A DNA stretch of 64,000 nt from an uncultured bacterium (GTDB taxonomy: Bacteria > Patescibacteriota > Minisyncoccia > Phycocordibacterales > GWA1-40-21), in NCBI GenBank assembly GCA_903831305.1, contig CAIKXE010000004.1:9026-73025 (forward strand), given 5' to 3'. A program made the position numbers and the translations under genes. Of this stretch, positions 5,568 through 57,290 are shown piece by piece (positions within the stretch are counted from its first letter, which is position 1; every line of letters starts with the position of its first letter). The notes below the pieces were generated by a model. It ran no database searches. It saw only the letters and a program-made list of their open reading frames with translations, and had not been told where the DNA came from.

Positions 5568-6600
5568 TACTCTCAATCTGAAACTTTTTATTTAAATTCA
5601 CTTTTTTAAGGATCACTTTTTCTATTCTTTTACTACCCGGATTTATTTCTACCTCTAAGAGCCCGCCTTGCATCGTCTCGGGAGAAAAATACTGATCAAA
5701 GATAAAGTTACCCAGACTATATATAATGTAGACATTTTTATATTGCTCTAACGTCTGTACCACATGCGGATGGTGACCGATAATCAGATCCGCCCCGGCG
5801 TCTATAGCCAGCTTTGCATATTTCTGTTGAAAATCATTCGGCAATTTTTCATACTCCTCACCAAAGTGATATGAAACTACTACTAAATCAGCCTCTGCTC
5901 TAGCCTTACTAACACTCTCCGCTATTTCTTTTTCTAATACCATAGCCATACCCGGACGAGTGGAAGTACTGTTTACTCCCCCATCTCTAAACTGACTAAA
6001 GGTCAGAAAAGCTACCTTTACCCCCTCAACGTTAATAACCTTTCCAGCATAAGCCTCTGAACCTGAAAACCCCCCGCCCACATAGGTAATACCATTTTCT
6101 GCTAGCCTACTTAGGGTATCGGTAAAGGCTTCCCCTCCCCAATTAAAAGTATGATTGTTAGCCACCGAAAAGACAGTAAAGCCAACGGCCTTTAAGGCAG
6201 GCAAGACCTTGGGATCAAAACGAAAGGAATATAGGCCACCCTGATCCACCCCACGGTCTGAAATCGGCCCCTCTAGATTAGCAAACAACAAATCATAATT
6301 GCTCAGCTGATCAGCCACCTCGGAAAAAAGCCCGGCATAATCGCCGGCAAAATTTTTAGAGACCGAGCTTTTCACCCCGCGATCAAGCATCATATCCCCG
6401 ACAAAAGCCACCGTCAGGTGACCATCAATCCCCGCCTTAGTTAAGGCGGGGCGGTTGTATTCTGTTAAATCCGCCACAGTGGCGACCTTGGGAACCTTTA
6501 TTGGACTTATAAAATAAAAACAAAAAAGGTTAATTACAAAAAAAGTTAAAACAAAAACGCCCAGACCCCAGATAATTTGTTTTTTTAGATTAGTCCACAT
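5560..6600 (-). CDS. CapA-family metallophosphatase (poly-gamma-glutamate synthesis CapA-like)
   Basis: N-terminal TM segment, then a calcineurin-like phosphoesterase motif region (GDMMLDRG...NLEGP...ANNH...GHHPH) typical of MPP_CapA. Confidence 0.7.
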   Translation of the reverse strand: MWTNLKKQIIWGLGVFVLTFFVINLFCFYFISPIKVPKVATVADLTEYNRPALTKAGIDGHLTVAFVGDMMLDRGVKSSVSKNFAGDYAGLFSEVADQLSNYDLLFANLEGPISDRGVDQGGLYSFRFDPKVLPALKAVGFTVFSVANNHTFNWGGEAFTDTLSRLAENGITYVGGGFSGSEAYAGKVINVEGVKVAFLTFSQFRDGGVNSTSTRPGMAMVLEKEIAESVSKARAEADLVVVSYHFGEEYEKLPNDFQQKYAKLAIDAGADLIIGHHPHVVQTLEQYKNVYIIYSLGNFIFDQYFSPETMQGGLLEVEINPGSKRIEKVILKKVNLNKKFQIESII

Positions 6601-12398: not shown

Positions 12399-12468
12399 AT
12401 TACCTAAAAAAGTCTCTCTCCACTTAACACCAGAACTAATCGTTCCGTGAGACTTTTTTGGGTAATTT
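12399..12468 (+). terminator. Intrinsic terminator hairpin with a family-E conserved loop (TTAAC..CAGAACTAATCG)
   Basis: attacctaaaaaagtctc...gagacttttttgggtaat. The stem is followed by a T-tract, and the loop carries cacttaacaccagaactaatcgttccg. Confidence 0.5.
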
Positions 12469-15557: not shown

Positions 15558-18500
15558 CTAAAATTCTGAATTTGATCCACCGCTCTCCACAACCGTGACA
15601 GAAGGATTATTACTACAATAAGCGACCTTAGTACCATCAGTTACCTTAGCGGTTACTGTATTTAGTCCCGTGGTCCTTAAGAAATAATAATATGTATTAT
15701 CAGTACTTGAGCCAGAAATCGGTGTGCCGTGCGGATTGGCCACCGTAATAGGATTATTTCTATTAATTATATACCAAGAGTATTGATACGTCCCGTCTGG
15801 CCCATAGACAGTAGCGGTCCAAAGGGAGTTAGAACCTCGATTGATGATGGGTGAGCTTGGGCTAGTTAATTCCACAGTACAGCTCAAGTCACTTCCTGGG
15901 ACACCCGAGCAATAAGAAATAGTCGTTCCTTTAGTACAAGTCCAATCCCCACTAATATATGGTGATTGGGAGGGGGTAGCACCCCCTATACATTCACCAG
16001 CAGTAGAGCTACAATAATCACCCTCATCCGGATTACCACCGCAGTTCTCGGTACAAGAGACCTCACAAGCTGGACAACTACCACCACAATCCACATCAGT
16101 TTCGTTACCATTTTTTTGACCGTCAGTACAAGTTGGAGACGGTGGAGTGGTAACACTCAAATTAGGACAACCAGCACTTAAAGTTTCAGTTCCACTATTA
16201 ATAGTGGAAGTAGCGGTATAATTCTTAACAGAAGTATAGGAAGTATTAACGACACTGGTAGTAGCACCATTAATATTCGTCCCTGCCCAAAGATAAGTAT
16301 ACGCTCCAATTCCACCAGTAGAGGTAGCGGTCCAAGTGACGGTTTGACCAGTAAGAGCAGTAGCTGGAGTGACAGAACAAGAAGCAGTAAGATGATCCCT
16401 AACTATAACATTGTTTTCGCTAGCACTATTAACACAGTTAGCTGAAGAAGTTTCCGTCCCCCTTGTGATTGTAGCAATACCATAATATGTTCCAGCGGTG
16501 GCATATGAGGTGGTGACGATGGCGGTGTTCTTGCCTGTCAAATTTGTACCGGCCCAGCTATAGGTATAGGCTCCGACTCCACCAGTAGAGGTAGCGGTCC
16601 AGGTCACAGTATCACCAGTGAGGACAGTAGCTGGAGCAACGGTACAGGAGACGGTAAAGGTTCCTGATTTGGTAGCTGAACAAGAAACTTCATTCCCTTG
16701 ATTAGCACAGGTCCAGCTCCAAGAATCAGTACCATCCGAGACGACACCTGAGGTACCAATACTACATTTTTCCGCCAGGGTGCTTGGGGCAGTGGTTCTC
16801 GTAGTCCCATTTGCACTACCACAAGAAGGATAAACGACTGGTGGTGGGGTAAAGGTTGCATTTATTGTGGTGTTAGTATTCAAAACAAAACCACAACCAC
16901 CAGTACCCGTACAACCACCGCCAGACCAACCCTGAAAGGAAGCACCACTGTCAGGTGTAGCTGTTAAAGCAATAGTTGTGCCGACGGGGAAAGTCACGAC
17001 ACAATCCGTAGCTGCAGGTCCACAGAGAATCATGGTGGTGGCGTCAGAGACAATACCGGGGCCAACTCTGTTTATACTCAAAGTCGCGGTTTCCGGAACT
17101 ACAACAGCCGAAGCCGAACAGGTGGAAACATAACAATTATTACTACAAGACCAAGTCCAAGGTCCAGTAGAACCTCCCACCACAGCACTTGCCGTACCAA
17201 TATCACATTTTTCTGTATCAGTATTTGGGGCGGTAGTTCTAGCAGTACCGTTTGCACTACCACAATAAGTGTTTGCTGGCTCAGTAGGAGTATCCATGCA
17301 AGCCGAACACTGTGCATTTAAACCACCATATCGCCCATTACAGTCCCATTTATATGTAGCTCCTTCGTCAGCAACATCAACAAAATCTCCTGTAGGACAA
17401 GTGTCTTTTGGCACACCACAAGTACCATCCACACCGTTAGTCTGTATCTCACAAGAAGAAGTAGCTGTTTTATTATTTACCGAATCTATAACTTTTATGT
17501 TAGCGATGTACTTGGTCGTGCCAGTGACAATATTCTGCAAGAAAGTGGCTGAAGTAGAACTCAGATCACCATTCCAGAAATAATTTGGATTACCGGTGTT
17601 ATAAGAGGTAGCCAGCCAAGAAATCTTTCCACTTGGAATATTTAACGGATCATCATAATATCTAGTACCAGAACAAGAAACCGTTGGGTCTGGAGTAATA
17701 GTCACATGATTATCACATGAAACGGTATATTCATTGGCATCCTGATCAGTCACTGTCACTTGACCATAATAGTCATCAGCCTCAGAGTATGAAGTAGTGG
17801 CGGCAGCGGAGTTGTTGCCAGTCAGATTAGGGCCTACCCAGCTATAAGTATAATCCCCAACTCCCCCAGTAGGAGTAGCCGTCCAAGTGACTGTCTCACC
17901 AATGGCCGCCGTAGATGGACTAACCGAACAAGAAGCTAAAAGTGGGGCCGCCGGGAAAGTCGTACTACAAGATGAAACGTAGCCAGCCGAGGAACATGTC
18001 CATGTCCAAGGAGCATCAATGCCACCAGTGATATCACTAGGGATACCGACTCTACATTTTTCTTCATTAGTGCTTGGAGCAATAGCTGTGGTGGTGGCAT
18101 TAAAAGTACCACAATAAGCAGGTGGTGGTACAGGTGGTGGCGTGACAGTACAAGTCACACTACTTGTTACTTCAGTACAAGTCCAATTCCAAGGACCGTT
18201 GGCATCACCATTTATAGCACTAGCAATACCGACCTGACACTTTTCTTCAGCCGTGTCTGGAGGAGTAGAACGGTCAATACCAGCCGGACGTACCTCATCA
18301 GCAACAGTACCACAGGCAGGATTACAAGGGTTTGATGGTGCACCGAACACCCCTACTGATAGAGCGGACTCTTTAGCTCCTAGATATGAACTGACCATGA
18401 ATAAATCAGTGGCTGAAGACGTGGCGGTGGTAGAAGTGGCGGTAGTGGTAGCGATGCGATTTGTCCCCTTGTAAACGTAATAACCGGTAACACCAGGGAC

Positions 18501-21500
18501 GGTACTCCACCTAATGGTGGTATAACCACCACACTGGCCAGCCGACTCGGCAGTAATAGTAGTAGGTGGACAAGGGGCCGAAGGCACACCATGGACAGCA
18601 CTAGATGATGTAGACTCCTGAGTGCCGAGATATGATCTGACAGTAAAGGTATCAGTGGTGGAGGCCAATAGTGTATAGGCAAGAACGGGCGTAGTAACAA
18701 GAGGGGTGGTCTCAGTACCACGATAGACTTTGTAACCAGTAGTTCCAGGAACTGGGCGCCAAGAAAGAGTGGTGTACCCGCCACACTGGGCAGCAGTGGC
18801 GACAAGGCTAGTTGGCGCCCCAAGATTAAATTGAGCAGTAACAGTAGTGGAGGTACTCATAGTAAAGGTACAAGTGAGAGCTGTTCCACTGCAGACTCCT
18901 CCCTGCCAACCGACAAAAATATGACCAGCGGTGGAGGTGGCAGTGAGAGTGACGGTAGTACCATTAATAACCGAAGTAGAAGTAGCTAAACAAGTTGCCC
19001 CGCAGATAACTCCTCCACCAGACACTGTACCAGTTCCCGTTCCAGTTTTGGTGACAGTTAGGGTAGAGGTACAAGGTCCTGAAGGAACTGCGGTTGCCGA
19101 ACTCGAAAATGCAGACTCTGCATTACCATTGTCAACGGCTTTAACTCGAAAAGTTTGTCCAGCTGTACTACTTGCCACATAAGAAATGTTGACAGTATAA
19201 CGAAGAAGTGTAAAAACAACATCGTTACTACTGACATAGATATTGTATCCTTTAGCACCAGGAATAGTGCCCCAGTTTAGAGAAATATTTCCCCCGCAAG
19301 AGGCAGAAGTAGTAGCCGTAAGATTAGGTGCTCCAAGGCCAAACCTGGCAAAAACAGTAGTGGTTGTACTCATAGTAAAGGTACAAGTAAGAGCTGTGCC
19401 ACTACATCCCCCTCCTGACCAGCCGACAAAGGCACTACCAGTAGTAGGGGTGGCCGTGAGAGTGACAGTAGTACCATTAATAACCGAAGTAGAAGTCGCT
19501 AAGCAACCGGCTCCGCAAGAGATTCCTCCACCAGACACTGTACCAGTTCCCGTTCCGATTTTAGTGACGGTTAGGGTAGAGGTACATGAAACAGAAGGGA
19601 TAGGTGATACTGAGTTTGAGGCGAGTGACTCGGTTTGACCAACATCAACAGCCTTAACTTGAAAATATTGTCCAGTGCTACTTGCTATGTAAGAAGTGGC
19701 GGGAGTCTCATAAAGAGGAGTAAAAACCACGCCATCAATACTTTTATAAATATGATATCCAGCTGCTCCGGGTATAGCGTCCCAGTTTAAAGAAATGTTT
19801 CCCCCGCAAGAGGCAGAAGTAGTAGCCGTAAGATTAGGTGCTCCAAGGCCAAACCTGGCAAAAACAGTAGTGGTTGTACTCATAGTAAAGGTACAAGTGA
19901 GAGCGGTGCCACTGCACCCCCCTCCAGACCAGCCGATAAAAGTGTTTCCAGGAATTGGATTAGCGGTGAGTATAATATCAGCACCAGGAATTACGGTAAT
20001 ACTTGCATTCTTACAATCGGCATCACAATTAATTACTGGAGTAACAGGAATACTAGAAGTACTGGTGACCAAACCAGTTCCAGATGATCCACTTTTACTA
20101 ACAGTTAAGACAGGGTATGGGAGAGAACAGGTAGTACTGGCACCGCCATACTGACCATTACAAGTCCAAAACGAAGTATCAGCAGTGTCTTCCGTATTAG
20201 TAAAAGTGCCTTCAATAGCACAGGTATTTACAACCAACGGCAGACTACAAGCACCAGCGACGGGAACGGGACAAGGAGCTGATGGCACACCATTTACAGA
20301 ATTTGATGATACAGATTCTTGAGTATCAAGATATGATCTGACAGTAAAAGTATCCGTAGTAGAGGCTAATAGAGTATAGCTAGTAACCGTGGTGGTAACG
20401 AGAGGGGTGGTTTCCGTTCCACGATAGACTTTGTAACCAGTAACACCAGTAACCGGCTGCCAAGAAAGAGTGGTAAAGCCTCCACACTGACCTGGGGTGG
20501 CTTGGGCGGTGAGCGAACTAGGTGCAGAAATAGTTTTATACTGACAATTACTAACAATGGCTGGACAGATAAAAACTTCCGACCAAGTACCACCTACGTT
20601 TGTTATTGTCTCCGAACAAGCAATACCATTTGGAGGAATTTTCCCAGCACAGGGAATATAAGGATCTATTACTACTTCACAAGTAGAAGACGCCGAAATT
20701 GAGGAACTATCAGTAGCGGTTACTTCAACAGTATAACGAGTCTTGGTCTGACTATTATATTCCTGCCAAACAGTATTCAATGAATCACCAGGGAGACTAT
20801 TGAGCAAGCTTGTTGGATCACCCTTCCACGTATAGGTGTAAGGAGCGTCTCCATTGGAAGCAGATGCCGTCCACTGAAGAGCATCACCATAATTTTCATC
20901 ATATGAAGACTTACCTAAATACGAACAACTAACATCAAGCCCAGGCCCAACGACAACTTGATTTGAACAGTTACTAAAACTTTCCTTATTTGCCTGATCA
21001 ATCACTTTTACAGAAAAAGCATATGTCCCAGGAGTAGAATAAACAATAGTGGTATTTGCGCTGCTAGTCGTGGCCATTTCTAAACCACTACGCTCATCTG
21101 TAAAGCGATACCGGTATGGAGCTGTTCCATCTGTAGCCACAGCCGTCCAGGTAACCAGTTGCCCCACCTTAGCTGAAGACCTGTTTGCGGAACAAGAAAC
21201 TTTAGGGCTAGGAATAGGGGTAGGGGTAATGATACACGGAGCGGAAGGCACAGCAGTAGCAAAATTGGAAAAGGGTATGTTAGCCGGATCTACTCCCGTT
21301 ATTAGTGGTTTAATGGCAAAGGAGTCTCCAATGACCGCATTTAACTCATATGAAATACCCGTTACTGTAGAAACAAAAACGGTTCCCGACGCATTTTTTT
21401 TATAAACCTGATAACTTGTTATACCCGGAACAGAATTCCAGTTTAAAATAACAAAACCATCACAAACGTCAGATGTTTTTGCCCTAATCTCTACAGGTGG

Positions 21501-24500
21501 AACAACTGTAAATTTGATATAGCCCTTTCCCCGAGCCACTGTCTGCCAAATTTTAGATTCAAACGTCTCCCAATTTATCTCCACAAATTCAGGTACATAC
21601 CACTGATTATCTACTTGTAAAAGAATATAATACACACCAGGAGTAGATGGAGCAATAAAAGATGCTCCTTGTTTTTCTAAAGAAAAATTATTACTATTCC
21701 AACCTTTTGGACAATCAAACCCCTCGCAACCACCTCCTTCATAGCGCCCATTGTTTATAATATAAGTTTCTTTATTATAAGGGTCAGTACCTACGGGAGA
21801 AGAAGACTGTAAAATATCTGATCTTTTAATAACTAATTGTTGAGGAGCATTACTACAAGCATAGCTTGATAAACTACCGGTAATATAAAACTCTTCATTT
21901 GGTGAAAGGATGAGCTGAGGAGCCGTTATGGTCATGGTTGTCACATTTCCACCGATATTATAAGCTGTATTAGAAGTCCAGACCACACTATTGGCACTAG
22001 CACTATCAAACGCCAAGAAAGAAGAAATCAGAACTAACACAAAAACTAATATAGTTTTCATCTCCTTTCTTTTTCTAAAAATATAAACACTGATAGACAA
22101 AATAATAACAGACAGAACGCCGAGTAAATAAAAGATGGCTTTACTTGTCGTCTGGGTATTCCCAGTCACCTCATTAGTATAGGTCGTGATAATATTATCA
22201 TTATCATCAGTCACTTTTATATCAATAAATATATTTTGTGCAGAAGCTTTTGCCTTTAAGGAAATGTCCAAAGAGATACCTTTGTTAAAATCTAATTTTC
22301 GGCTATAAGCAGACACAATTTCCTTGTTTTCGTTTAGAATATTTATAAACAGATTAAGTGGATTTTCTTTTACTGTCGGACCTAGATCAATATCCAGTGG
22401 GGCTCCGGTATAGACCATGTTAAAATTATAAGTATCCCCAACCTTCAAAATATTTTTGTTCAATGAGACAGATTGGATAGCTGCCACTGACCCCGTCACA
22501 ATGTATCTTGCTAAAACAGTCGGAGTGACTTTAATAGCATCTGAGTTTAAAAAATCAACGGACAGCTCATAAACTCCTGACTTGTCTAAATATGAAATCC
22601 CCCACTGAAATAGTTTTGTAGTACTGGCAGAAATAGTTATAGGATCAAGCCTATAACTAGTAATCAAATTCCCCGATACGGTCCGATCATATATTTTAAT
22701 CTCAGGGGTTAAAACCTGTCCCGTAGTAAAAGGATTCTCTACATTTATGTAAAGTGTTCCTTTCTTATCTGGGGAGAGAGTCGGCCCCTCCTGCAATCCA
22801 TATTTTTTCTCTCCTATCGTTAGATAAGCATCACTGACCTTTAAAAGTGAGTTATCCCCAGTAACTTCAATAAACTTATCCTTCCAAGACAAAGGCATGC
22901 CGGCCGCAGTATAAAACTGAATTTGAATACCTAAGGCTTTTCCTGAAAAGTTAGTCGGCAGTAAATAACTAAAATTAATTTGTTTCATTTCTCCCGCCTT
23001 TAGAAAAACCGGGCCGTATGACTTACTATCATAAATGACGCCCGCCAAACCGTTTCTCCGATACTCCCCAGCCAAAGAAACCGTATATTTTAAATCTGGC
23101 AAATTATAGTCCTTATCATTTTTCAAAGTAAAAGTTCCTGTTACTTCTTCACCAGCGGAATATTTATCCTTGGGCAGAGAAATATTTTTAATCTCCACTG
23201 ATGGCAGATTATTCAGCTCCGCTATCTCAGCCGGAGTAGCCTGAACTTCATAAGTGTCACCATTATTGGTTTGAGCCAAGACCGTATTAGCTGAAAAAAT
23301 TAAACTGCAAGACACTCCAATAAACAAAAATGTTTTCAGCATTTTATTTTTTTTATAAAACACACTGATAATAATTATTGCTAATAAAACCAAAAGCCCT
23401 AACGCCCATAAAACACCAGGAAAGCCGGTCGAAACGTTATTGCCTGTTATTTCGTGATTATAAGAGGTAATTTTGTCACCCTTGGCATCGGTCACTACCA
23501 CATTTACAAATACCCTGCTAGCACCAGCATTAGCGGTCAAAGGAACTTCTAATACGACTCCTTTATTAAAATCTAATTTACCATTATAGCTTGATACGAG
23601 GCGAGCCTCCTCATTCAAAATAGTAACTGATACATTGAGTACATTTTCCTTAAGAACAGAGGGTTGATCTATATCTTTTGGTATTCCCGTATAAACCATC
23701 TTAAAATTAAACTCCTTACCAGATTTTAAAGTATTCTTGTCTAGAGTGATCTGCTGAATAGTGGCCATCGGTCCGCTGATAACATATTTGACCAAGGTGG
23801 TCGGTGCTACTTTCACTTTTTGGCTGTTATAAAAGTTTACGGCCACTTCATAAATACCAGGCTTATCTAAATATGAGATTTCCGAGGAAAAAGATTTTGT
23901 ACCCCTAGCAGAAATTGTAAATGGTTTTAAAGTGGTGGTTTTAAGCAATGCCCCCATGGCTGATTGGTCATAGATTTTAATTTCGGGGGTGAGGGTTCGT
24001 TCCTGATTAAAAGGATTTTCCAGCTTTACATTTATTACCGCTTTCTTAGTGGCTGACAAAGTCGGCCCTGATGATACAGAATATTTATTATTCCCAATAT
24101 TAAGATAAGCATCAGCTATTTTCATCATTGAGTTTCCACCTGTTACTTCAAGAGGTTTATCCTTCCAAACCAAAGGTAGCCCGGTAGAGGTATAGAGCTC
24201 TATGCGGAGTCCCAAGTTTGACCCAGCTACATTACTTGGTAACAAATAACCAAAACTAATTTCTTTTGTTTCACCAGACTTCAAAAAAACAGGACCGTAA
24301 AACCGGCTATCGTATATTTCTCTCGCCAGACCATCAGCCCCATACCCGCCTACTAAAGATATCTGGTATTTCAAATCAGGAATGCTGTAGCCTTTAATAT
24401 TTTTAATAACAAATACTCCCGCTACTCCTTCGCCTTGAGTATAGGTAGATTTGGCTGGAGAAATATCTTTGATCTCAATTACGGGCAGACTGTCTGTCTT

Positions 24501-24632
24501 GGCCAACTCCTCTAGAGTGGTTTGCACCAAATCCATATTTCGGTTTACTGTCTGGGCTGAGGCGCTAGGGAGAAAAAAGCCAGACCCCAACAAAACCAAA
24601 GCCAAGACAGAGATCAAGAGAAGTTTTTTCAT
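15558..24632 (-). CDS. Giant (3024 aa) polytopic surface protein: two paralogous modules of about 430 aa, then a module of about 2170 aa with FN3-like, PKD-like, B-repeat-like and Cys-rich WxWTC repeats
   Basis: A single uninterrupted frame. The N-terminus MKKLLLISVLALVLLGSGFFLPSASAQ is a signal peptide. There are internal TM + KKNK/RKRKE + signal-like segments at residues of about 415-450 and 845-880. PKD-like units carry (T/V)TWTAT.TGG.G.YTY.W. FN3-like units carry GYK(V/I)Y. The DGQKNGNETDVDCGGSC motif is present. Confidence 0.7.
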   Translation of the reverse strand: MKKLLLISVLALVLLGSGFFLPSASAQTVNRNMDLVQTTLEELAKTDSLPVIEIKDISPAKSTYTQGEGVAGVFVIKNIKGYSIPDLKYQISLVGGYGADGLAREIYDSRFYGPVFLKSGETKEISFGYLLPSNVAGSNLGLRIELYTSTGLPLVWKDKPLEVTGGNSMMKIADAYLNIGNNKYSVSSGPTLSATKKAVINVKLENPFNQERTLTPEIKIYDQSAMGALLKTTTLKPFTISARGTKSFSSEISYLDKPGIYEVAVNFYNSQKVKVAPTTLVKYVISGPMATIQQITLDKNTLKSGKEFNFKMVYTGIPKDIDQPSVLKENVLNVSVTILNEEARLVSSYNGKLDFNKGVVLEVPLTANAGASRVFVNVVVTDAKGDKITSYNHEITGNNVSTGFPGVLWALGLLVLLAIIIISVFYKKNKMLKTFLFIGVSCSLIFSANTVLAQTNNGDTYEVQATPAEIAELNNLPSVEIKNISLPKDKYSAGEEVTGTFTLKNDKDYNLPDLKYTVSLAGEYRRNGLAGVIYDSKSYGPVFLKAGEMKQINFSYLLPTNFSGKALGIQIQFYTAAGMPLSWKDKFIEVTGDNSLLKVSDAYLTIGEKKYGLQEGPTLSPDKKGTLYINVENPFTTGQVLTPEIKIYDRTVSGNLITSYRLDPITISASTTKLFQWGISYLDKSGVYELSVDFLNSDAIKVTPTVLARYIVTGSVAAIQSVSLNKNILKVGDTYNFNMVYTGAPLDIDLGPTVKENPLNLFINILNENKEIVSAYSRKLDFNKGISLDISLKAKASAQNIFIDIKVTDDNDNIITTYTNEVTGNTQTTSKAIFYLLGVLSVIILSISVYIFRKRKEMKTILVFVLVLISSFLAFDSASANSVVWTSNTAYNIGGNVTTMTITAPQLILSPNEEFYITGSLSSYACSNAPQQLVIKRSDILQSSSPVGTDPYNKETYIINNGRYEGGGCEGFDCPKGWNSNNFSLEKQGASFIAPSTPGVYYILLQVDNQWYVPEFVEINWETFESKIWQTVARGKGYIKFTVVPPVEIRAKTSDVCDGFVILNWNSVPGITSYQVYKKNASGTVFVSTVTGISYELNAVIGDSFAIKPLITGVDPANIPFSNFATAVPSAPCIITPTPIPSPKVSCSANRSSAKVGQLVTWTAVATDGTAPYRYRFTDERSGLEMATTSSANTTIVYSTPGTYAFSVKVIDQANKESFSNCSNQVVVGPGLDVSCSYLGKSSYDENYGDALQWTASASNGDAPYTYTWKGDPTSLLNSLPGDSLNTVWQEYNSQTKTRYTVEVTATDSSSISASSTCEVVIDPYIPCAGKIPPNGIACSETITNVGGTWSEVFICPAIVSNCQYKTISAPSSLTAQATPGQCGGFTTLSWQPVTGVTGYKVYRGTETTPLVTTTVTSYTLLASTTDTFTVRSYLDTQESVSSNSVNGVPSAPCPVPVAGACSLPLVVNTCAIEGTFTNTEDTADTSFWTCNGQYGGASTTCSLPYPVLTVSKSGSSGTGLVTSTSSIPVTPVINCDADCKNASITVIPGADIILTANPIPGNTFIGWSGGGCSGTALTCTFTMSTTTTVFARFGLGAPNLTATTSASCGGNISLNWDAIPGAAGYHIYKSIDGVVFTPLYETPATSYIASSTGQYFQVKAVDVGQTESLASNSVSPIPSVSCTSTLTVTKIGTGTGTVSGGGISCGAGCLATSTSVINGTTVTLTATPTTGSAFVGWSGGGCSGTALTCTFTMSTTTTVFARFGLGAPNLTATTSASCGGNISLNWGTIPGAKGYNIYVSSNDVVFTLLRYTVNISYVASSTAGQTFRVKAVDNGNAESAFSSSATAVPSGPCTSTLTVTKTGTGTGTVSGGGVICGATCLATSTSVINGTTVTLTATSTAGHIFVGWQGGVCSGTALTCTFTMSTSTTVTAQFNLGAPTSLVATAAQCGGYTTLSWRPVPGTTGYKVYRGTETTPLVTTPVLAYTLLASTTDTFTVRSYLGTQESTSSSAVHGVPSAPCPPTTITAESAGQCGGYTTIRWSTVPGVTGYYVYKGTNRIATTTATSTTATSSATDLFMVSSYLGAKESALSVGVFGAPSNPCNPACGTVADEVRPAGIDRSTPPDTAEEKCQVGIASAINGDANGPWNWTCTEVTSSVTCTVTPPPVPPPAYCGTFNATTTAIAPSTNEEKCRVGIPSDITGGIDAPWTWTCSSAGYVSSCSTTFPAAPLLASCSVSPSTAAIGETVTWTATPTGGVGDYTYSWVGPNLTGNNSAAATTSYSEADDYYGQVTVTDQDANEYTVSCDNHVTITPDPTVSCSGTRYYDDPLNIPSGKISWLATSYNTGNPNYFWNGDLSSTSATFLQNIVTGTTKYIANIKVIDSVNNKTATSSCEIQTNGVDGTCGVPKDTCPTGDFVDVADEGATYKWDCNGRYGGLNAQCSACMDTPTEPANTYCGSANGTARTTAPNTDTEKCDIGTASAVVGGSTGPWTWSCSNNCYVSTCSASAVVVPETATLSINRVGPGIVSDATTMILCGPAATDCVVTFPVGTTIALTATPDSGASFQGWSGGGCTGTGGCGFVLNTNTTINATFTPPPVVYPSCGSANGTTRTTAPSTLAEKCSIGTSGVVSDGTDSWSWTCANQGNEVSCSATKSGTFTVSCTVAPATVLTGDTVTWTATSTGGVGAYTYSWAGTNLTGKNTAIVTTSYATAGTYYGIATITRGTETSSANCVNSASENNVIVRDHLTASCSVTPATALTGQTVTWTATSTGGIGAYTYLWAGTNINGATTSVVNTSYTSVKNYTATSTINSGTETLSAGCPNLSVTTPPSPTCTDGQKNGNETDVDCGGSCPACEVSCTENCGGNPDEGDYCSSTAGECIGGATPSQSPYISGDWTCTKGTTISYCSGVPGSDLSCTVELTSPSSPIINRGSNSLWTATVYGPDGTYQYSWYIINRNNPITVANPHGTPISGSSTDNTYYYFLRTTGLNTVTAKVTDGTKVAYCSNNPSVTVVESGGSNSEF
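18780..20160. repeat. Intragenic tandem DNA repeats (period about 519 bp; 2 full copies plus partial copies) inside the giant gene
   Basis: 19264-19420 and 19782-19940 are more than 95% identical (cccagttta.agaaat.tttcccccgcaagaggcagaagtagtagccgtaagattaggtgctccaaggccaaacctggcaaaaacag...). 18790-19100 is a more diverged copy. These encode the repeated protein unit of about 173 aa, GAPNLTATTSASCGGNISLNW...TLTVTK.GTGTGTVSGGG..CGA.CLATSTSVINGTTVTLTAT. Confidence 0.8.
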
Positions 24633-26179: not shown

Positions 26180-26335
26180 CCACTAAATCCCCACCTTAGT
26201 TAAGGCGGGGTGGTGAGGCTTTGCGAACCGGGGCGGTGTGTCTGTAGGGAGTACCGAGTCAGCGAGGGGAGGTGGTATAAAAAAACGGAAACAAACAAGG
26301 GCGGGAGGGGGTGCAGCACCCCCTCCCGCCCTTTC
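26180..26335 (+). repeat. GC-rich structured intergenic element, family C copy 1
   Basis: Hairpin ccccaccttagttaaggcgggg plus the motif gggagtaccgagtcagcgaggggaggtggt (also present at about 32246 and about 46938). A perfect 15-bp-stem hairpin ggcgggagggggtgc/gcaccccctcccgcc follows. Confidence 0.6.
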
Positions 26336-26712: not shown

Positions 26713-26800
26713 GAGAGCAAACATATTTGATTTTAAAATGTCTGGCCGAAGTTCTGACGAGGAGATCCGAGGACTTTTAAAATTAAATATGTTTGCTCTC
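26713..26800 (+). repeat. Family A miniature palindromic element, copy 1 (core about 64 bp with 14-bp TIRs, nested in a copy-specific 16-bp inverted repeat)
   Basis: gagagcaaacatattt | gattttaaaatgtctggccgaagttctgacgaggagatccgaggacttttaaaattaaat | atgtttgctctc. The core recurs at 36721-36820 (minus) and 41144-41236 (plus). This copy ends 15 nt upstream of the hppA ATG. Confidence 0.7.
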
Positions 26801-28830: not shown

Positions 28831-28837
28831 CTCCCCT

Positions 28838-28900
28838 TTCCCCACCTTAGTCAAGGCGGGGTGTCTGTTCTGACAGACGGGGCGGTTGGTCAGGTATTGA
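28838..28900 (+). repeat. GC-rich hairpin element related to family C (lacks the gagtaccgagtc motif)
   Basis: ccccaccttagtcaaggcggggtg plus the gtctgttctgacagac hairpin plus ggggcggttggtcagg, immediately after the hppA stop. It shares ccccacctta...aaggcgggg and cggggcggt with the element after nusA. Confidence 0.5.
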
Positions 28901-32149: not shown

Positions 32150-32280
32150 ACCGCCCCGGTCATCGGAATGACCACCCCGCCTTGACTAAGGCGGGGAAAG
32201 GGAACAGGAGCAGGTAGGGTCCCCTTTCTCCTCCTTGATTAAGGAGGAGTACCGAGTCGGCGAGGGGAGGTGGTGGGGTG
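32150..32280 (+). repeat. GC-rich structured intergenic element, family C copy 2 (between divergent rsmE and clpP)
   Basis: Palindrome ccccgccttgactaaggcgggg. Hairpin ctcctccttgattaaggaggag. Motif ggagtaccgagtcggcgaggggaggtggt, about 65 nt upstream of the clpP ATG. Confidence 0.6.
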
Positions 32281-36720: not shown

Positions 36721-36820
36721 CAAAGTAACAAACGTCAAAATTATTTAATTTTAAAAGTCCTCGGATCCCCTCGTCAGAACTTCGGCCAGACATTTTAAAA
36801 TCAAACAATTTTTACTTTGC
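36721..36820 (-). repeat. Family A miniature palindromic element, copy 2
   Basis: The reverse complement contains gattttaaaatgtctggccgaagttctgacgaggggatccgaggacttttaaaattaaat, flanked by caaagtaa/ttactttg. It sits just 3' of the RNHCP gene. Confidence 0.7.
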
Positions 36821-38064: not shown

Positions 38065-38160
38065 CCGGGAATATAATTTTTGGAGTGCGCATAATTTTCT
38101 GCTGAAAATTTGCTCTCTCTCGCCTACCCGGCTGTGAAGCCTCCAAAATCATATTCCCGG
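38065..38160 (+). repeat. Family B conserved structured element, copy 1
   Basis: ccgggaatat | aattttggagtgcgcataattttctgctgaaaatttgctctctctcgcctacccggctgtgaagcctccaaaatcat | attcccgg. The core of about 78 nt is at least 95% identical at about 45770-45882 (minus) and 57198-57290 (plus). It contains the inner palindrome aattttc tgc tgaaaatt. Confidence 0.75.
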
Positions 38161-39431: not shown

Positions 39432-39577
39432 ATTAAACCGGAGGTTTAATTAGGACGAGAACGGCGGAGCTATATTTTTTCAGCCGAAAAAATAGCGAGC
39501 CGGTGGCCAGCCTAAAATTTCTGACGAGAAATTTTAAGGCGAGGCCGAGATTCCTACCAAACTTTCACATCAAAAAT

Positions 39578-41140
39578 ATGGCTCTAAATAAGTACGAGAT
39601 AAAAAAGTTAGATCTACCACTGGAAGTCATAAATGTCATTCAGACCTTGAAGGATAAGGCCTGCCCGCCCTCCGTAGGTGGCAGGCGGGGTTTTGAAGCT
39701 TATCTCATTGGTGGCTGTGTGCGTGATTTGTTATTAAACAGAAAGCCCAAGGACTGGGATGTGACTACAGATGCTACGCCAGAAGAAATAATTGCTTTGT
39801 TTAAGGATACTTTTTATGAGAATAATTACGGTACAGTGGGGATTGTGAATGAGGAAAGTAAAGATGAAACCCTAAAAGTAATCGAGGTTACGCCATATAG
39901 ACTAGAAGCCGAATACTCCGATAATCGCCGGCCAGATCATGTCACTTTTAGTAAAAATTTAGAAGATGATTTACAAAGAAGAGATTTTACTATCAATGCT
40001 ATTGCTCTAGATATAAAAGAAATAGCCAAAAATAAATCTGTTAAAGGCGGGCCAAAGTTTAGCGGAGAGTATCTGGATTATTATAACGGACATGAAGATC
40101 TGCAGGCTAAAATCATACGGACAGTGGGGGAAGCACATGATAGATTCACGGAAGATGGCCTCCGCATCCTCCGGGCGGTGAGAATTGCCACGGAAATCGG
40201 CTTTTGTATTGATAAAAAGACGGAAAAAGCCATAGTTACGAACGCTTCCTTACTTACCAATATCGCCAAGGAGAGAATCCGTGATGAATTTACCAAGATA
40301 ATTATGTCTGACAACCCCATGGCCGGACTTGTATTATGCCGTAAAATGGGCTTAATTCCTTATATTATACCAAAAATTGAGTCCACAGTGAGTGTTGAGC
40401 AGAGCCGGTCCCATATTTATGATGTTTTTGAGCATAGTTTACGCTCTTTACAGCACACCGCAGATAAAAAATACCCCTTGGAGATACGCCTGGCGGCTTT
40501 GTTTCATGATATCGGCAAGCCACCTACCAGAAGACGTGATAAAGAGCAGGATATTTGGACTTTCTATGGTCATGAGGTAACGGGGGCCAAAATAGTGGCC
40601 GAGATTTTAGCGGATTTACGATTTCCCAAAAAAATAATTGAAAAAGTGACCAAACTGGTGCGCTGGCATATGTTTTTTGCAGATACAGAACAAATATCCC
40701 TGTCCGCCGTACGCCGGATTATTTCTAGTGTCGGCCGTGATAATATTTGGGATCTGATGAACTTGAGGGGAGCGGATAGAATGGGTATGGGAAGGCCAAA
40801 AGAGAGCCCCTACCGCTTGAGAAAGTATCATTCGATGGTGGAGGAGGCTATGACAGATCCCGTGTCTGTAGGCATGCTCGAGATTGATGGTGCCCAGGTG
40901 ATGAAATTCACTGGTGAGGCACCCGGACCAAAAATTGGTTATATGTTACACGCTCTGCTGGAAGAAATGCTAGAAAATCCGGCCCTAAACACGGAAGAGT
41001 ATTTAAAGAAAAGAGCCAAGGAATTAGCCAAATTAGACGCTAATGACCTTAAAAAGCTAGGGGATTCTGGTAAAGAAACCAAGGAAAAAGAAGAGGAAAA
41101 GAAAATTGAGGAAATTCGTAAAAAACATTGGGTGCAGTAA
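39578..41140 (+). CDS. cca: CCA-adding enzyme / tRNA nucleotidyltransferase with a C-terminal HD domain
   Basis: AYLIGGCVRDLLLNRKPKDWDVTT is the Pol-beta NTase head motif, and the HD motif is LAALFHDIGKP. The start is assigned to the internal Met MALNKYEI. Confidence 0.8.
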   Translation: MALNKYEIKKLDLPLEVINVIQTLKDKACPPSVGGRRGFEAYLIGGCVRDLLLNRKPKDWDVTTDATPEEIIALFKDTFYENNYGTVGIVNEESKDETLKVIEVTPYRLEAEYSDNRRPDHVTFSKNLEDDLQRRDFTINAIALDIKEIAKNKSVKGGPKFSGEYLDYYNGHEDLQAKIIRTVGEAHDRFTEDGLRILRAVRIATEIGFCIDKKTEKAIVTNASLLTNIAKERIRDEFTKIIMSDNPMAGLVLCRKMGLIPYIIPKIESTVSVEQSRSHIYDVFEHSLRSLQHTADKKYPLEIRLAALFHDIGKPPTRRRDKEQDIWTFYGHEVTGAKIVAEILADLRFPKKIIEKVTKLVRWHMFFADTEQISLSAVRRIISSVGRDNIWDLMNLRGADRMGMGRPKESPYRLRKYHSMVEEAMTDPVSVGMLEIDGAQVMKFTGEAPGPKIGYMLHALLEEMLENPALNTEEYLKKRAKELAKLDANDLKKLGDSGKETKEKEEEKKIEEIRKKHWVQ

Positions 41141-41143
41141 GGA

Positions 41144-41236
41144 AAAAGCCCAGAATTGTTTGATTTTAAAATGTCTGGCCCTAGTCTGCGACGGGAGATC
41201 CGAGGACTTTTAAAATTAAATAATTCTGGGCTTTTT
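41144..41236 (+). repeat. Family A miniature palindromic element, copy 3, nested in the loop of the cca terminator stem
   Basis: aaaagcccagaatt | gtttgattttaaaatgtctggccctagtctgcgacgggagatccgaggacttttaaaattaaat | aattctgggctttttat. The outer 14-bp stem plus T-tract looks like an intrinsic terminator. Confidence 0.7.
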
Positions 41237-41249
41237 ATACATAATATTT

Positions 41250-41320
41250 AAAATCCCCAGGAAAATCCTCTCCGCTTAACGTCAGAACTAATCGCTCCGA
41301 GGAAATTCCTGGGGATTTTA
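41250..41320 (+). other. Hairpin with the family E conserved loop core
   Basis: aaaatccccagg...cctggggatttt is the stem. The loop ctccgcttaacgtcagaactaatcgctccgagg carries the same 22-nt core as the loop at 30125-30160. Confidence 0.55.
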
Positions 41321-41797
41321 TGAAATCAAAAAACCGCCCCTCAGTGTTTTCTTAGTCGGTAAGAAGACGTTTTGGAACGGTTTTGAAGCCGGTTCCTTTT
41401 GTTTTTGTTGGTACCGTACTTCACGATATGTGTGACATTGATCAGATGTCATTTTTTACTTAAAGAACTGATATTTTCTTCAACACTTTTGGCTGGAGAT
41501 ATTTTGCCGCTTGTGTTGGTCTGGTATTATTATATTCTTTATAAAAGACATGTAAAGGACAGACCTGTGGATAACTTTTTATTCTGTCCTTTATAACGGA
41601 CAACCACCAAAACGAGAGAAGCAAAAAATGTTGTCTTTCATTTGATCCTTATTTTATATTATATTTTTGATATTTAAATTACTCTTGACTTATATCTTAC
41701 ACTATGCCATATTGTTTTACAGAACGTTTTTCATGACTGCTCTCTACGAGCGGGTGGAAACGAAAAGTGTCCTTTCAATGAAAGAGGTCAGGGAAAA

Positions 41798-42082: not shown

Positions 42083-42096
42083 GGAGCGGGGGGCTT

Positions 42097-42195
42097 TCCG
42101 CTATGATGGCGGACGCGAGTGGGAGAACGCGTGAGTTTCTCCCCTTTATTCAGTGCAAGATCTAAATCGTGCCTTGATAGAGAAAAACTATTTAT
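42097..42195 (+). repeat. Family D conserved element, copy 1 (about 95 nt; TATAAT-like box, then hairpin gggagaa..ttctccc and T-tract)
   Basis: ccgctatgatggcggacgcgagtgggagaacgcgtgagtttctcccctttattcagtgcaagatctaaatcgtgccttgatagagaaaaactattt. It is about 90% identical to 44442-44538, and a partial copy lies at 43621-43680. Confidence 0.75.
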
Positions 42196-43620: not shown

Positions 43621-43680
43621 CCGGTATAATGCCGGCCGTTAAGGGAGAACGCGTAAGTTTCTCCTCTGTCCTCCGCTAAG
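43621..43680 (+). repeat. Family D element, partial or divergent copy
   Basis: ccggtataatgccggccgttaagggagaacgcgtaagtttctcctc. It shares the tataatg.cgg box and the gggagaacgcgt.agtttctcc hairpin. Confidence 0.6.
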
Positions 43681-44370: not shown

Positions 44371-44441
44371 AAATACAGTTTTTGTCCCCGTTTGCACTAT
44401 AAGCAAATGGAGAGTCCAGAGGAAGCAGAGCCTCTCAAATT

Positions 44442-44538
44442 CCGCTATAATGACGGACGCAGATGGGAGAACGCGTGAGTTTCTCCCCTTTATTCAGTGC
44501 AGGATCTAAATCATGCTTTGATAGAGGAAAACTATTTT
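44442..44538 (+). repeat. Family D conserved element, copy 3
   Basis: ccgctataatgacggacgcagatgggagaacgcgtgagtttctcccctttattcagtgcaggatctaaatcatgctttgatagaggaaaactatttt. It overlaps the 3' end of the convergent xthA. Confidence 0.75.
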
Positions 44539-46861: not shown

Positions 46862-46970
46862 CAGAATGCCACTCCTCCTAAGAATAGGAGGAGATGAAGC
46901 CCACCCGAAGTTACGTCTTACTCTCCGCCTATCTTAGGAGGAGTACCGAGTCTGCGAGGGGAGGTGGTAT
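46862..46970 (+). repeat. GC-rich structured intergenic element, family C copy 3 (between divergent xer and rpsO)
   Basis: Hairpins ctcctcctaagaataggaggag and ctccgcctatcttaggaggag. Motif ggagtaccgagtctgcgaggggaggtggt ends about 45 nt upstream of the rpsO ATG. A 10-codon uORF (MGLAFLGETC) starts 3 nt after the SD-like ggaggtggt. Confidence 0.6.
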
Positions 46971-57197: not shown

Positions 57198-57290
57198 GGA
57201 TAACATAATTTTGGAGTGCGCATAATTTTCTGCTGAAAATTTGCTCTCTCTCGGCTACCCGCCTGTGAAGCCTCCAAAATCATATTATCC
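57198..57290 (+). repeat. Family B conserved structured element, copy 3
   Basis: ctaggataacat | aattttggagtgcgcataattttctgctgaaaatttgctctctctcggctacccgcctgtgaagcctccaaaatcat | attatcctag. It lies between pcrA and rsmA. The outer flank is a copy-specific palindrome. Confidence 0.75.

Follow-up and report, generated by a model that had tools for sequence, protein, structure and literature searches.

Rickettsia palindromic elements (RPE), reportedly described by Ogata et al. in 2000, are hairpin repeats of about 100 nt that live in a small, reduced genome without a transposase of their own, and that are found in intergenic spacers and also, in frame, in tolerant loops of housekeeping proteins. 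Several other systems combine short palindromes with dispersal. REP and REPIN sequences, mobilised by RAYT proteins of the Y1/HUH type, are short interspersed palindromes that form a single-stranded hairpin on one strand, reach tens of copies per genome and often lie beside gene ends. MITEs such as Correia, RUP and Nezha are small non-autonomous repeats with inverted-repeat ends, which may contain promoters or terminators and may be inserted in frame within genes. The attC sites of integrons are active as a folded single strand, whose shape is recognised through its extrahelical bases and whose terminal structure is variable. Mobile palindromes of organelle genomes, among them the GC clusters of yeast mitochondria, are short and spread in compact genomes, also into coding sequence with both arms translated. 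They further include the palindromic repeats of Volvox organelle genomes (PMC2670323) and the coding palindromes found in an organelle genome of Nematomorpha (PMC6649704).

The repeat family analysed here, termed family A, recalls each of these systems in the traits just listed and departs from each in others. RPE copies are alike over their full length, whereas family A is conserved only at its centre, with tip and base free; in addition, its stem is partly host flank and its host phylum is CPR. In REP/REPIN the stem is conserved and the spacer variable, which is the reverse of family A, and these sequences are by definition extragenic, whereas family A is found inside genes as well. Unlike MITEs, family A lacks fixed termini and has its conserved recognition part in the interior. 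At integron attC sites, which flank gene cassettes, the base carries conserved R''/R' boxes, whereas the base of family A is free and its copies are dispersed. The organelle palindromes differ in being organellar, unrelated in sequence and devoid of a conserved asymmetric core. Two kinds of behaviour are RPE-like: insertion in frame into conserved protein genes without disruption, in genes whose homologues lack the segment, and patchy presence at the cca, pheT and iscS sites and at 57.2 kb of the window compared with the related loci L002 and L004. Judged by its core sequence and host phylum, family A is unlikely to be homologous to RPE-1 through RPE-8, and the likeness is one of behavioural class. 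We regard family A, with a probability of about 60%, as a selfish palindromic element resembling the Rickettsia elements. Within the RPE/REP/MITE kind it stands out by three traits: its recognition centre is conserved, its stems are free in sequence, and the stem grows into the DNA of the host.

Three copies of family A are present in the window, i.e. in the whole 64,000-nt stretch of DNA that was analysed, whose CCA-enzyme homologues place the organism near Candidatus Taylorbacteria. Copy 1 (26713-26800, plus strand; MFE -42.2 kcal/mol, z -8.05; 69.4 bits with the covariance model) lies between a small ORF and hppA. Its copy-specific outer 5' arm, GAGAGCAAACATA (26713-26725), pairs with the equally copy-specific outer 3' arm, TATGTTTGCTCTC (26788-26800), and its conserved core (26740-26774) consists of GTCTGGCC and AGATCCGAGGAC separated by a tip hairpin (26746-26762). 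Copy 2 (36721-36819, minus strand, core at 36757-36791) has an imperfect outer stem and a fold z of -3.7; its neighbours are an RNHCP-domain gene (37124-36822) and tRNA-Gly(tcc) (36672-36601). Copy 3 (41144-41236, plus strand, core at 41173-41207; MFE -45.4 kcal/mol, z -7.78) starts 3 nt past the stop codon of cca (41138-41140). Its outer arms, AAAAGCCCAGAATT and AATTCTGGGCTTTT, are followed by T, the copy ends in TTTTT, and its tip hairpin, CCCTAGTCTGCGACGGG, differs from that of copies 1 and 2. The pattern GTCTGGCC-N16-GATCCGAGGAC has exactly three matches in the window against 0.00 expected from 100 shuffles, and the pattern GATCCGAGGACTTTTAAAAT leads to the same three sites. Over the unit of about 64 nt, copies 1 and 2 differ by a single A/G, and in copy 3 only a 15-nt inner segment is swapped; the inner inverted repeat TTTGATTTTAAAA / TTTTAAAATTAAA pairs, one G.T included. 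The outer flanks of the three copies are palindromes, different in each, and the whole regions fold beyond their shuffles (z = -8.1, -3.7 and -7.8 for copies 1, 2 and 3). Thus the three copies of the original prediction, each within its own palindrome, are real, with one small correction: copy 2 ends at 36819 rather than 36820. The neighbours are also those of the original prediction, copy 1 ending 14 nt before the ATG of hppA (26815). As to the proposed 14-bp terminal inverted repeats, a repeat of 13-14 bp bounds the 64-nt unit within this genus, and across genera this stem changes.

Some further features of these loci deserve mention. In copies 1 and 2 the tip variant GAAGTTCTGACGAGG, together with TAAAAT of the 3' inner stem, makes up a sigma-70-like pattern, CTGACG-18-TAAAAT (9/12 matches), at 26754-26783 (plus) and 36777-36748 (minus), which points outward to hppA and tRNA-Gly(tcc), respectively. 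This tip variant is the commonest among the metagenome matches (21 copies); copy 3, with the other variant, lacks the pattern. Upstream of cca, whose true start is ATG 39578, the spacer that separates it from tRNA-Arg (39432-39577) folds strongly (-48.9 kcal/mol for the 149 nt of 39432-39580) and contains GGCCAGCC-TAAAATTTCTGACGAGAAATTTTA-GGCGAGGCCGAGAT, reminiscent of pieces of the family A core; the GTG at 39503, given as the start in the ORF list and probably wrong, lies inside this spacer. Orientation relative to replication, approached by GC skew, was uninformative, as gene orientation dominates the profile and copies 1-3 are not co-oriented.

To place these copies in a wider setting, we scanned one genome per species with the pattern AATGTCTGGCC-N10-22-GATCCGAGGACTT, which returned 40 loci, several genomes having more than one. 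The attribution of family A to its hosts rests on the titles of these 40 genome-collection loci, nearly all of which name Paceibacterota-type CPR MAGs (labelled Vogel-, Nomura- or 'Saccharibacteria') and a few only a 'bacterium'. A looser scan of metagenomes added 105 loci, and from about 165 fetched loci a total of 144 distinct copies was obtained. A search of the whole window against Rfam 15 at the gathering threshold returned four tRNAs only, and a permissive scan of copy 3 returned generic miRNA-precursor hairpins with at most 23.9 bits against thresholds of 38-230. Literature searches by topic, by related element types and by the sequence string found nothing on such an element. Family A is therefore apparently an undescribed hairpin repeat family, common in Paceibacteria.

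Across genera the asymmetric core alone is kept, GUCUGG(CC) and (GG)AGAUCCGAGGAC on either side of the tip hairpin. Its 5' strand reads (A)AAU-GUC-U-GG-CC and its 3' strand GG-AGAU-CC-GA-GGAC-UU(U); a single U bulges from the former, and the latter has two bulges, of 4 nt and 2 nt. This conservation is partly a matter of ascertainment, because the invariant core positions were preset by the search patterns. The tip hairpin, of 14-28 nt, is free in sequence and always paired; it often opens with tandem G.A/A.G, which in other copies are replaced by Watson-Crick pairs. Beyond the core follow an A/T-rich inner stem typical of the subfamily and then an outer stem unique to the copy. The element-borne unit comprises about 45-65 nt, and the outer stem beyond GUC/GAC has a median of 21 paired positions and a maximum of 40. 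Three ideas about this architecture were dropped. CCGAGG as a common recognition word is only 2-fold enriched (40 vs 18.6), mostly in coding DNA. A kink-turn has in its favour the tandem G.A/A.G of the tip hairpin, but the bulge is misplaced, lying two base pairs off and on the wrong side. A hammerhead or other known ribozyme was suggested by CUGACGAG in the tip of copies 1 and 2, which is absent from most members; the Rfam searches gave no such match.

The pairing of the hairpin is supported by covariation. In 108 copies aligned to the model, 86.4% of cells pair, against 72.0% after shuffling, and the covariation score is 0.318 vs 0.093, a value reached by none of 500 shuffles; the signal collapses once the 3' partners are slid by 1-3 columns, and both helices flanking the core covary. 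The covariance model also recovers diverged copies, with GAACC or GGTCC for GATCC; among the further changes are GAAGAC, a U-A in place of a U.G pair and a G/C inner stem in place of AAAAU. The mismatches of the arms are strongly asymmetric. Counted as distinct events, 64 are G.T and 10 A.C, and in the copy-specific outer arms the numbers are 47 and 6. The bias is found alike in copies that are sense to both neighbours (27:0) and in copies that are antisense to both (36:3). Since it is independent of the orientation of the neighbours, the fold is selected on the element's own strand and not in host mRNA, which makes either single-stranded DNA of this strand or a transcript of the element itself the likely folded molecule. 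As for orientation, between co-directional genes 35 copies are antisense and 24 sense, 21 copies lie between divergent and 11 between convergent genes, and in coding DNA 11 of the 12 copies are antisense to the host gene, all gene contexts having been assigned with a crude ORF caller. That only 1 of the 12 coding copies is sense suggests that the sense RNA harms the mRNA.

Analysis of orthologous sites shows that copies are gained and lost. Downstream of the cca stop codon the window has a family A hairpin, then a hairpin of another family, family C, and then a conserved block, AAAAAACCGCCCC. In L055/L056, whose CCA enzyme is 88% identical to that of the window, the block follows directly, without any hairpin. 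In L053 (CCA enzyme 85%) a plain hairpin, AAAAAGTAGGCC-AAAA-GGCCTACTTTTT, sits right after cca at the position of copy 3; it is built of A-tract, stem and T-tract and is terminator-like. In L057 (83%) there is a family C element with arms of its own, of which the left one, GGAAGAAAACACCGGAATG, is similar to the left arm of the window's family A hairpin, GGAAAAAGCCCAGAATTG. The second site is at 57.2 kb, in the part of the window (52-60 kb) that is syntenic with L002/L004 at about 75% nucleotide identity. Here the window has a third family, B, at the place that family A occupies in L002 and L004, and the arms of the two families bear no relation to each other; comparison of L002 with L004 shows fully compensated changes in the arms. 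As the arms are wholly different between the families at this site, they go with the element and not with the site. In L032 family A lies upstream of a gene where the window has yet another repeat. Within pheT, the first of two sites, in orthologues that are 85% identical, has unrelated arms in L059 (1490-1570) and L028 (3260-3350), and the L059 copy is a core minus the tip hairpin (GTCTGG-TGAACTGAC-CCGAGGAC); at the second site the same two orthologues are conserved to about 90%. The divergence of one site next to the conservation of the other indicates that turnover is rapid and site-specific. Contigs from one strain often end at the element, and those with identical CCA enzyme and HppA carry it in all cases, without presence/absence polymorphism. 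Mobility is inferred from the patchy occupancy, because no insertion was caught between near-identical strains.

The block downstream of cca is an observation in its own right. It spans about 70 nt (window 41326-41400), has the form AAAAACCGCCCC..GTTTTC..AGTCGG..AAGA..CGGTTTTGAAGCC, is present in all four related genomes and is kept whatever repeats intervene (window, L053, L055, L057). Rfam gives no match for it; it might encode a small RNA or serve as a terminator.

Twelve copies fall within long reading frames, at permissive loops that recur as insertion sites, and the frames stay open throughout. The host genes are iscS, pheT (two sites), tgt, uvrC (two sites), uvrB, argS and mnmA; in tgt one site is occupied in three lineages, in different frames. 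Alignment to solved structures shows that the IscS insert puts 35 residues in the place of 6 in the PDB homologue and the Tgt insert 47 in the place of 10, and the PheT inserts are absent from most Paceibacteria homologues. Among 120 IscS homologues many have the empty form, IRHFRKSN-NTN-FPLFHTDA, and at this insertion point dozens of lineages have different inserts, some of family A and some of other hairpin families. The palindrome inside a gene is net extra DNA of about 60-90 nt. In tgt of L020 (3280-3320) a complete copy lies, with its 5' arm, directly against a truncated older one, GAAAATGTCTGGCCGAGCGAAGGAGAC, which indicates repeated insertion at the same spot. The surface loop IRHFRK...FPLFHTDA of Paceibacteria IscS (homologues P0241-P0360) is an insertion hot spot, with inserts of 15-50 residues such as FFRSSDEGGRGARPFKN, SAPQGLASGSLEARPF and CEECKFLGACELDG, several of which resemble hairpin elements of other families in translation. 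Insertion follows a similar pattern in Tgt (after HRWAERSL), PheT (at its two sites) and UvrC.

The iscS copies also reveal where the arms come from. In L023 the stem has 31 bp, and one arm ends in TTTCTTTTTCCGATTTTTC, which encodes F-L-F-P-I-F-H, with F-P-I-F-H conserved; the other arm, the reverse complement of TTTCTTTTTCCGATTTTTC, is newly added DNA. Between the equivalent flanks, the empty alleles L165 and L166 show nothing but AAT AAT ACG AAT, and no hairpin is present in L165 and only a low-complexity A/T run in L166. The inserted arm tracks the proline codon of the host, CCG/CGG in L023 and CCT/AGG in L167 and L168. It follows that at least the outer part of the stem was made by inverted duplication of the host flank or has been kept complementary to it. 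In iscS the native side lies 5' in the element's sense strand. This polarity plausibly extends to pheT site 1 and mnmA; in tgt an older partial copy takes the 5' position. The result that one arm is native is clear only at iscS, and uvrC and uvrB are ambiguous. In a general permutation test, arms bear no relation to the sequence just outside them (similarity 5.07 vs 4.89 +/- 0.12). An arrangement of the type X-core-X'-X, in which the 5' arm is a direct copy of the sequence right of the hairpin, was hinted at by copies 1 and 3, L002 and L004; it was abandoned, as the permutation test was unsupportive.

Family A does not pass the target-site test for a MITE, nor the tests for a REP/REPIN, an intrinsic terminator or any Rfam family. 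Direct target-site duplications, as for MITEs, were not found, the flanks being inverted and not direct, and no parent IS with matching ends is present among 1063 ORFs from about 900 kb of element-bearing loci. Clustering of these ORFs yielded only housekeeping families and one HTH protein, and no transposase, recombinase or other autonomous partner; a RAYT gene is likewise absent from the fetched DNA (about 900 kb of loci). No R''-L''...L'-R' boxes of the attC type (RYYYAAC / GTTRRRY) were found at the base of the hairpin, and the contexts are ordinary housekeeping genes. For an intrinsic terminator, i.e. a G+C-rich stem with a loop of 3-8 nt and a U-tract, the 'loop' of copy 3 is too large at about 62 nt, and a terminator scan called none of the three copies. 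Only copy 3 of the three has a T-tract; copies 1 and 2 and most family members have none.

The reading of family A as a selfish RPE-like element would proceed as follows. The core would serve as the recognition site of a trans-acting factor, on single-stranded DNA or RNA of the sense strand. Once inserted, the sense strand could fold and have its 3' end extended on its own 5' flank by fold-back or template-switch synthesis, and such extension would both grow the palindrome into host DNA and keep it perfect. The terminator look of copy 3 (A-tract, stem, T-tract) might then be a by-product of copying an A-rich 5' flank. Because a T-tract follows its stem, copy 3 is a candidate terminator and may well end cca transcription; on this evidence its stem came with or after the element and not before it. 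A bolder form of the idea, possible if rather doubtful, is that the internal loop GUCUGG / AGAUCCGAGGAC with its bulges is a new kind of motif, for catalysis or recognition, that works on single-stranded nucleic acid, and that the element spreads by extension of its 3' end onto host DNA. If so, each copy would build its stem from host sequence, with an inverted instead of a direct target duplication, unrelated cores such as those of families B and C would share the route, making up a CPR-specific class of hairpin elements, and such elements would also remodel the surface loops of essential proteins.

The identity of the core across distant genera, which stands against a selfish nature, also fits a structured element useful to the host. 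The corresponding alternative, which we consider unlikely, is a functional structured RNA (a self-cleaving ribozyme, a processing or protein-binding signal, a terminator or a stabiliser) selected by the host at each locus, with the internal loop displayed between arbitrary helices. The invariant nucleotides in and around the bulges, the covariation of both flanking helices and the tolerance of G.U-type wobbles on one strand only would all be expected of it, as would, if sense RNA harms the mRNA, the rarity of sense copies in coding DNA (1/12) and their slight shortage between co-directional genes (24 vs 35). Gene neighbourhoods also recur in lineages less than 60% identical, and among the recurrent positions in deeply diverged lineages are the one upstream of a 272-aa HTH gene next to ftsK and one near efp. 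However, about half of the intergenic copies have both neighbours in the opposite orientation (35, vs 24 with both in the same one), and the G.T bias is equal in sense and antisense copies, so host read-through transcription is not what selects the fold. A conserved promoter outside the hairpin is missing, occupancy is patchy at orthologous sites among close relatives, and insertion in frame in seven housekeeping genes is unlike a cis-regulatory RNA. In addition, neither the known small ribozymes (hammerhead, twister, twister-sister, pistol, hatchet, hairpin and HDV-like) nor any other Rfam 15 family scores above the noise of generic hairpins. A host-maintained single-stranded DNA site, with a fold like attC or REP, that a resident recombinase or HUH nuclease uses for a chromosomal function, would account for the one-strand folding signature irrespective of transcription context and for the attC-like combination of conserved extrahelical bases with variable terminal structure. 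We find it very improbable: the window and the 900 kb or so of loci contain no associated enzyme, the outer stem is free in sequence, unlike the R/L boxes of attC, and both coding insertion and patchy occupancy argue for parasitism.

The original prediction saw in family A a MITE-like unit of about 64 bp that targets the loops of pre-existing hairpins, so that both arms would be older host sequence and copy 3 would have landed in the loop of a cca terminator. Several findings are in line with it: the arms start exactly at the unit boundary in every copy, the same build is common to several families, including family B, a plain A-tract/stem/T-tract hairpin does exist at the position of copy 3 in L053, and the left arms of the window's family A and of family C in L057 are similar, as expected if the arm belongs to the site. 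Nevertheless, L055/L056, the closest relative, is hairpin-free after the cca stop codon. The arms differ completely between families at the site that the window shares with L002/L004, which speaks against arms that belong to the site, and at iscS one arm consists of native codons and the other is an inverted copy of them, which speaks against arms older than the element; inside genes the palindrome is about 60-90 nt of extra DNA, and the empty alleles have no comparable hairpin. A T-tract follows only copy 3 in the window and only a few of the listed family copies. The MITE label also fits poorly, given the lack of target-site duplication and the conservation, across genera, of the centre of the hairpin and not of its ends. 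Taken together, this makes loop targeting quite improbable; for intergenic copies it may still apply, the hairpin of L053 and the similar left arms at the cca site being the strongest points for it. The more general part of the prediction, a dispersed repeat that behaves as a mobile element, is borne out. Orthologous sites are empty or otherwise occupied, and in the relatives compared identical flanks and core do not form one conserved unit.

The genomes of CPR bacteria are among the smallest and most streamlined known. Nonetheless, family A and at least two families of like build fill many of their short intergenic spacers, and the inserts add 15-35 residues to essential enzymes (IscS, PheT, Tgt, UvrB/C, ArgRS, MnmA). 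Such repeats break assemblies, inflate or split gene calls and explain many of the lineage-specific 'insertions' in alignments of CPR proteins; they may also provide terminators, and possibly promoters, beside genes. The conserved centre with free stems, the folding of one strand and the host-copied stem lie outside the usual MITE and REP schemes, and these three features point to a mechanism of spread or maintenance outside those schemes.

The two other families with this build are represented in the window as well. Family B, correctly singled out in the original prediction as having a similar architecture, has two copies (38078-38155 and 57209-57286) with a 78-nt core that is 97% identical and has internal hairpins of its own, enclosed in outer palindromes that differ (CACCGGGAATAT vs GCTAGGATAA), as in family A. 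Family C, with the core CTCTCCGCTTAACGTCAGAACTAATCGCTCCGAGG and copy-specific arms, is found at 12416-12462 and, directly after copy 3, at 41268-41314, and a reversed copy lies right after cca in the Taylorbacteria-like L057 (4013-4110). For such a small genome, structured intergenic repeats are unusually frequent in the window. A small family, GGAGTACCGAGTC.GCGAGGGGAGGTGG, occurs at 26248-26278, 32246-32276 and 46940-46970, a 98-nt repeat with GGGAGAACGCGTGAGTTTCTCCCC at 42096-42193, 44440-44537 and 43643-43667, and a G+C-rich hairpin, CCCCGCCTTAGTTAAGGCGGGG, after nusA and hppA, at 6427-6455, 26186-26214 and 28837-28865.

Two proteins are worth noting. The 272-aa protein (L014:944-1762; also in L039, L070, L089, L098/L135, L152 and L092) combines a DeoR-like winged helix at its C-terminus, a Pfam match below threshold (E = 0.005), with an N-terminus that by eye looks like a four-helix bundle. 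In five lineages less than 60% identical the element lies within 50-200 nt of its gene, often in the spacer common with ftsK, and in L014 two inverted copies bracket the gene, which could be a hot spot for the element or encode a partner protein. Upstream of nusA, an ORF of 3024 aa (window 15558-24632, minus strand) contains internal repeats of about 510 nt with 80% identity and has a precomputed Pfam match to Flg_new_2; it probably encodes a giant surface protein.
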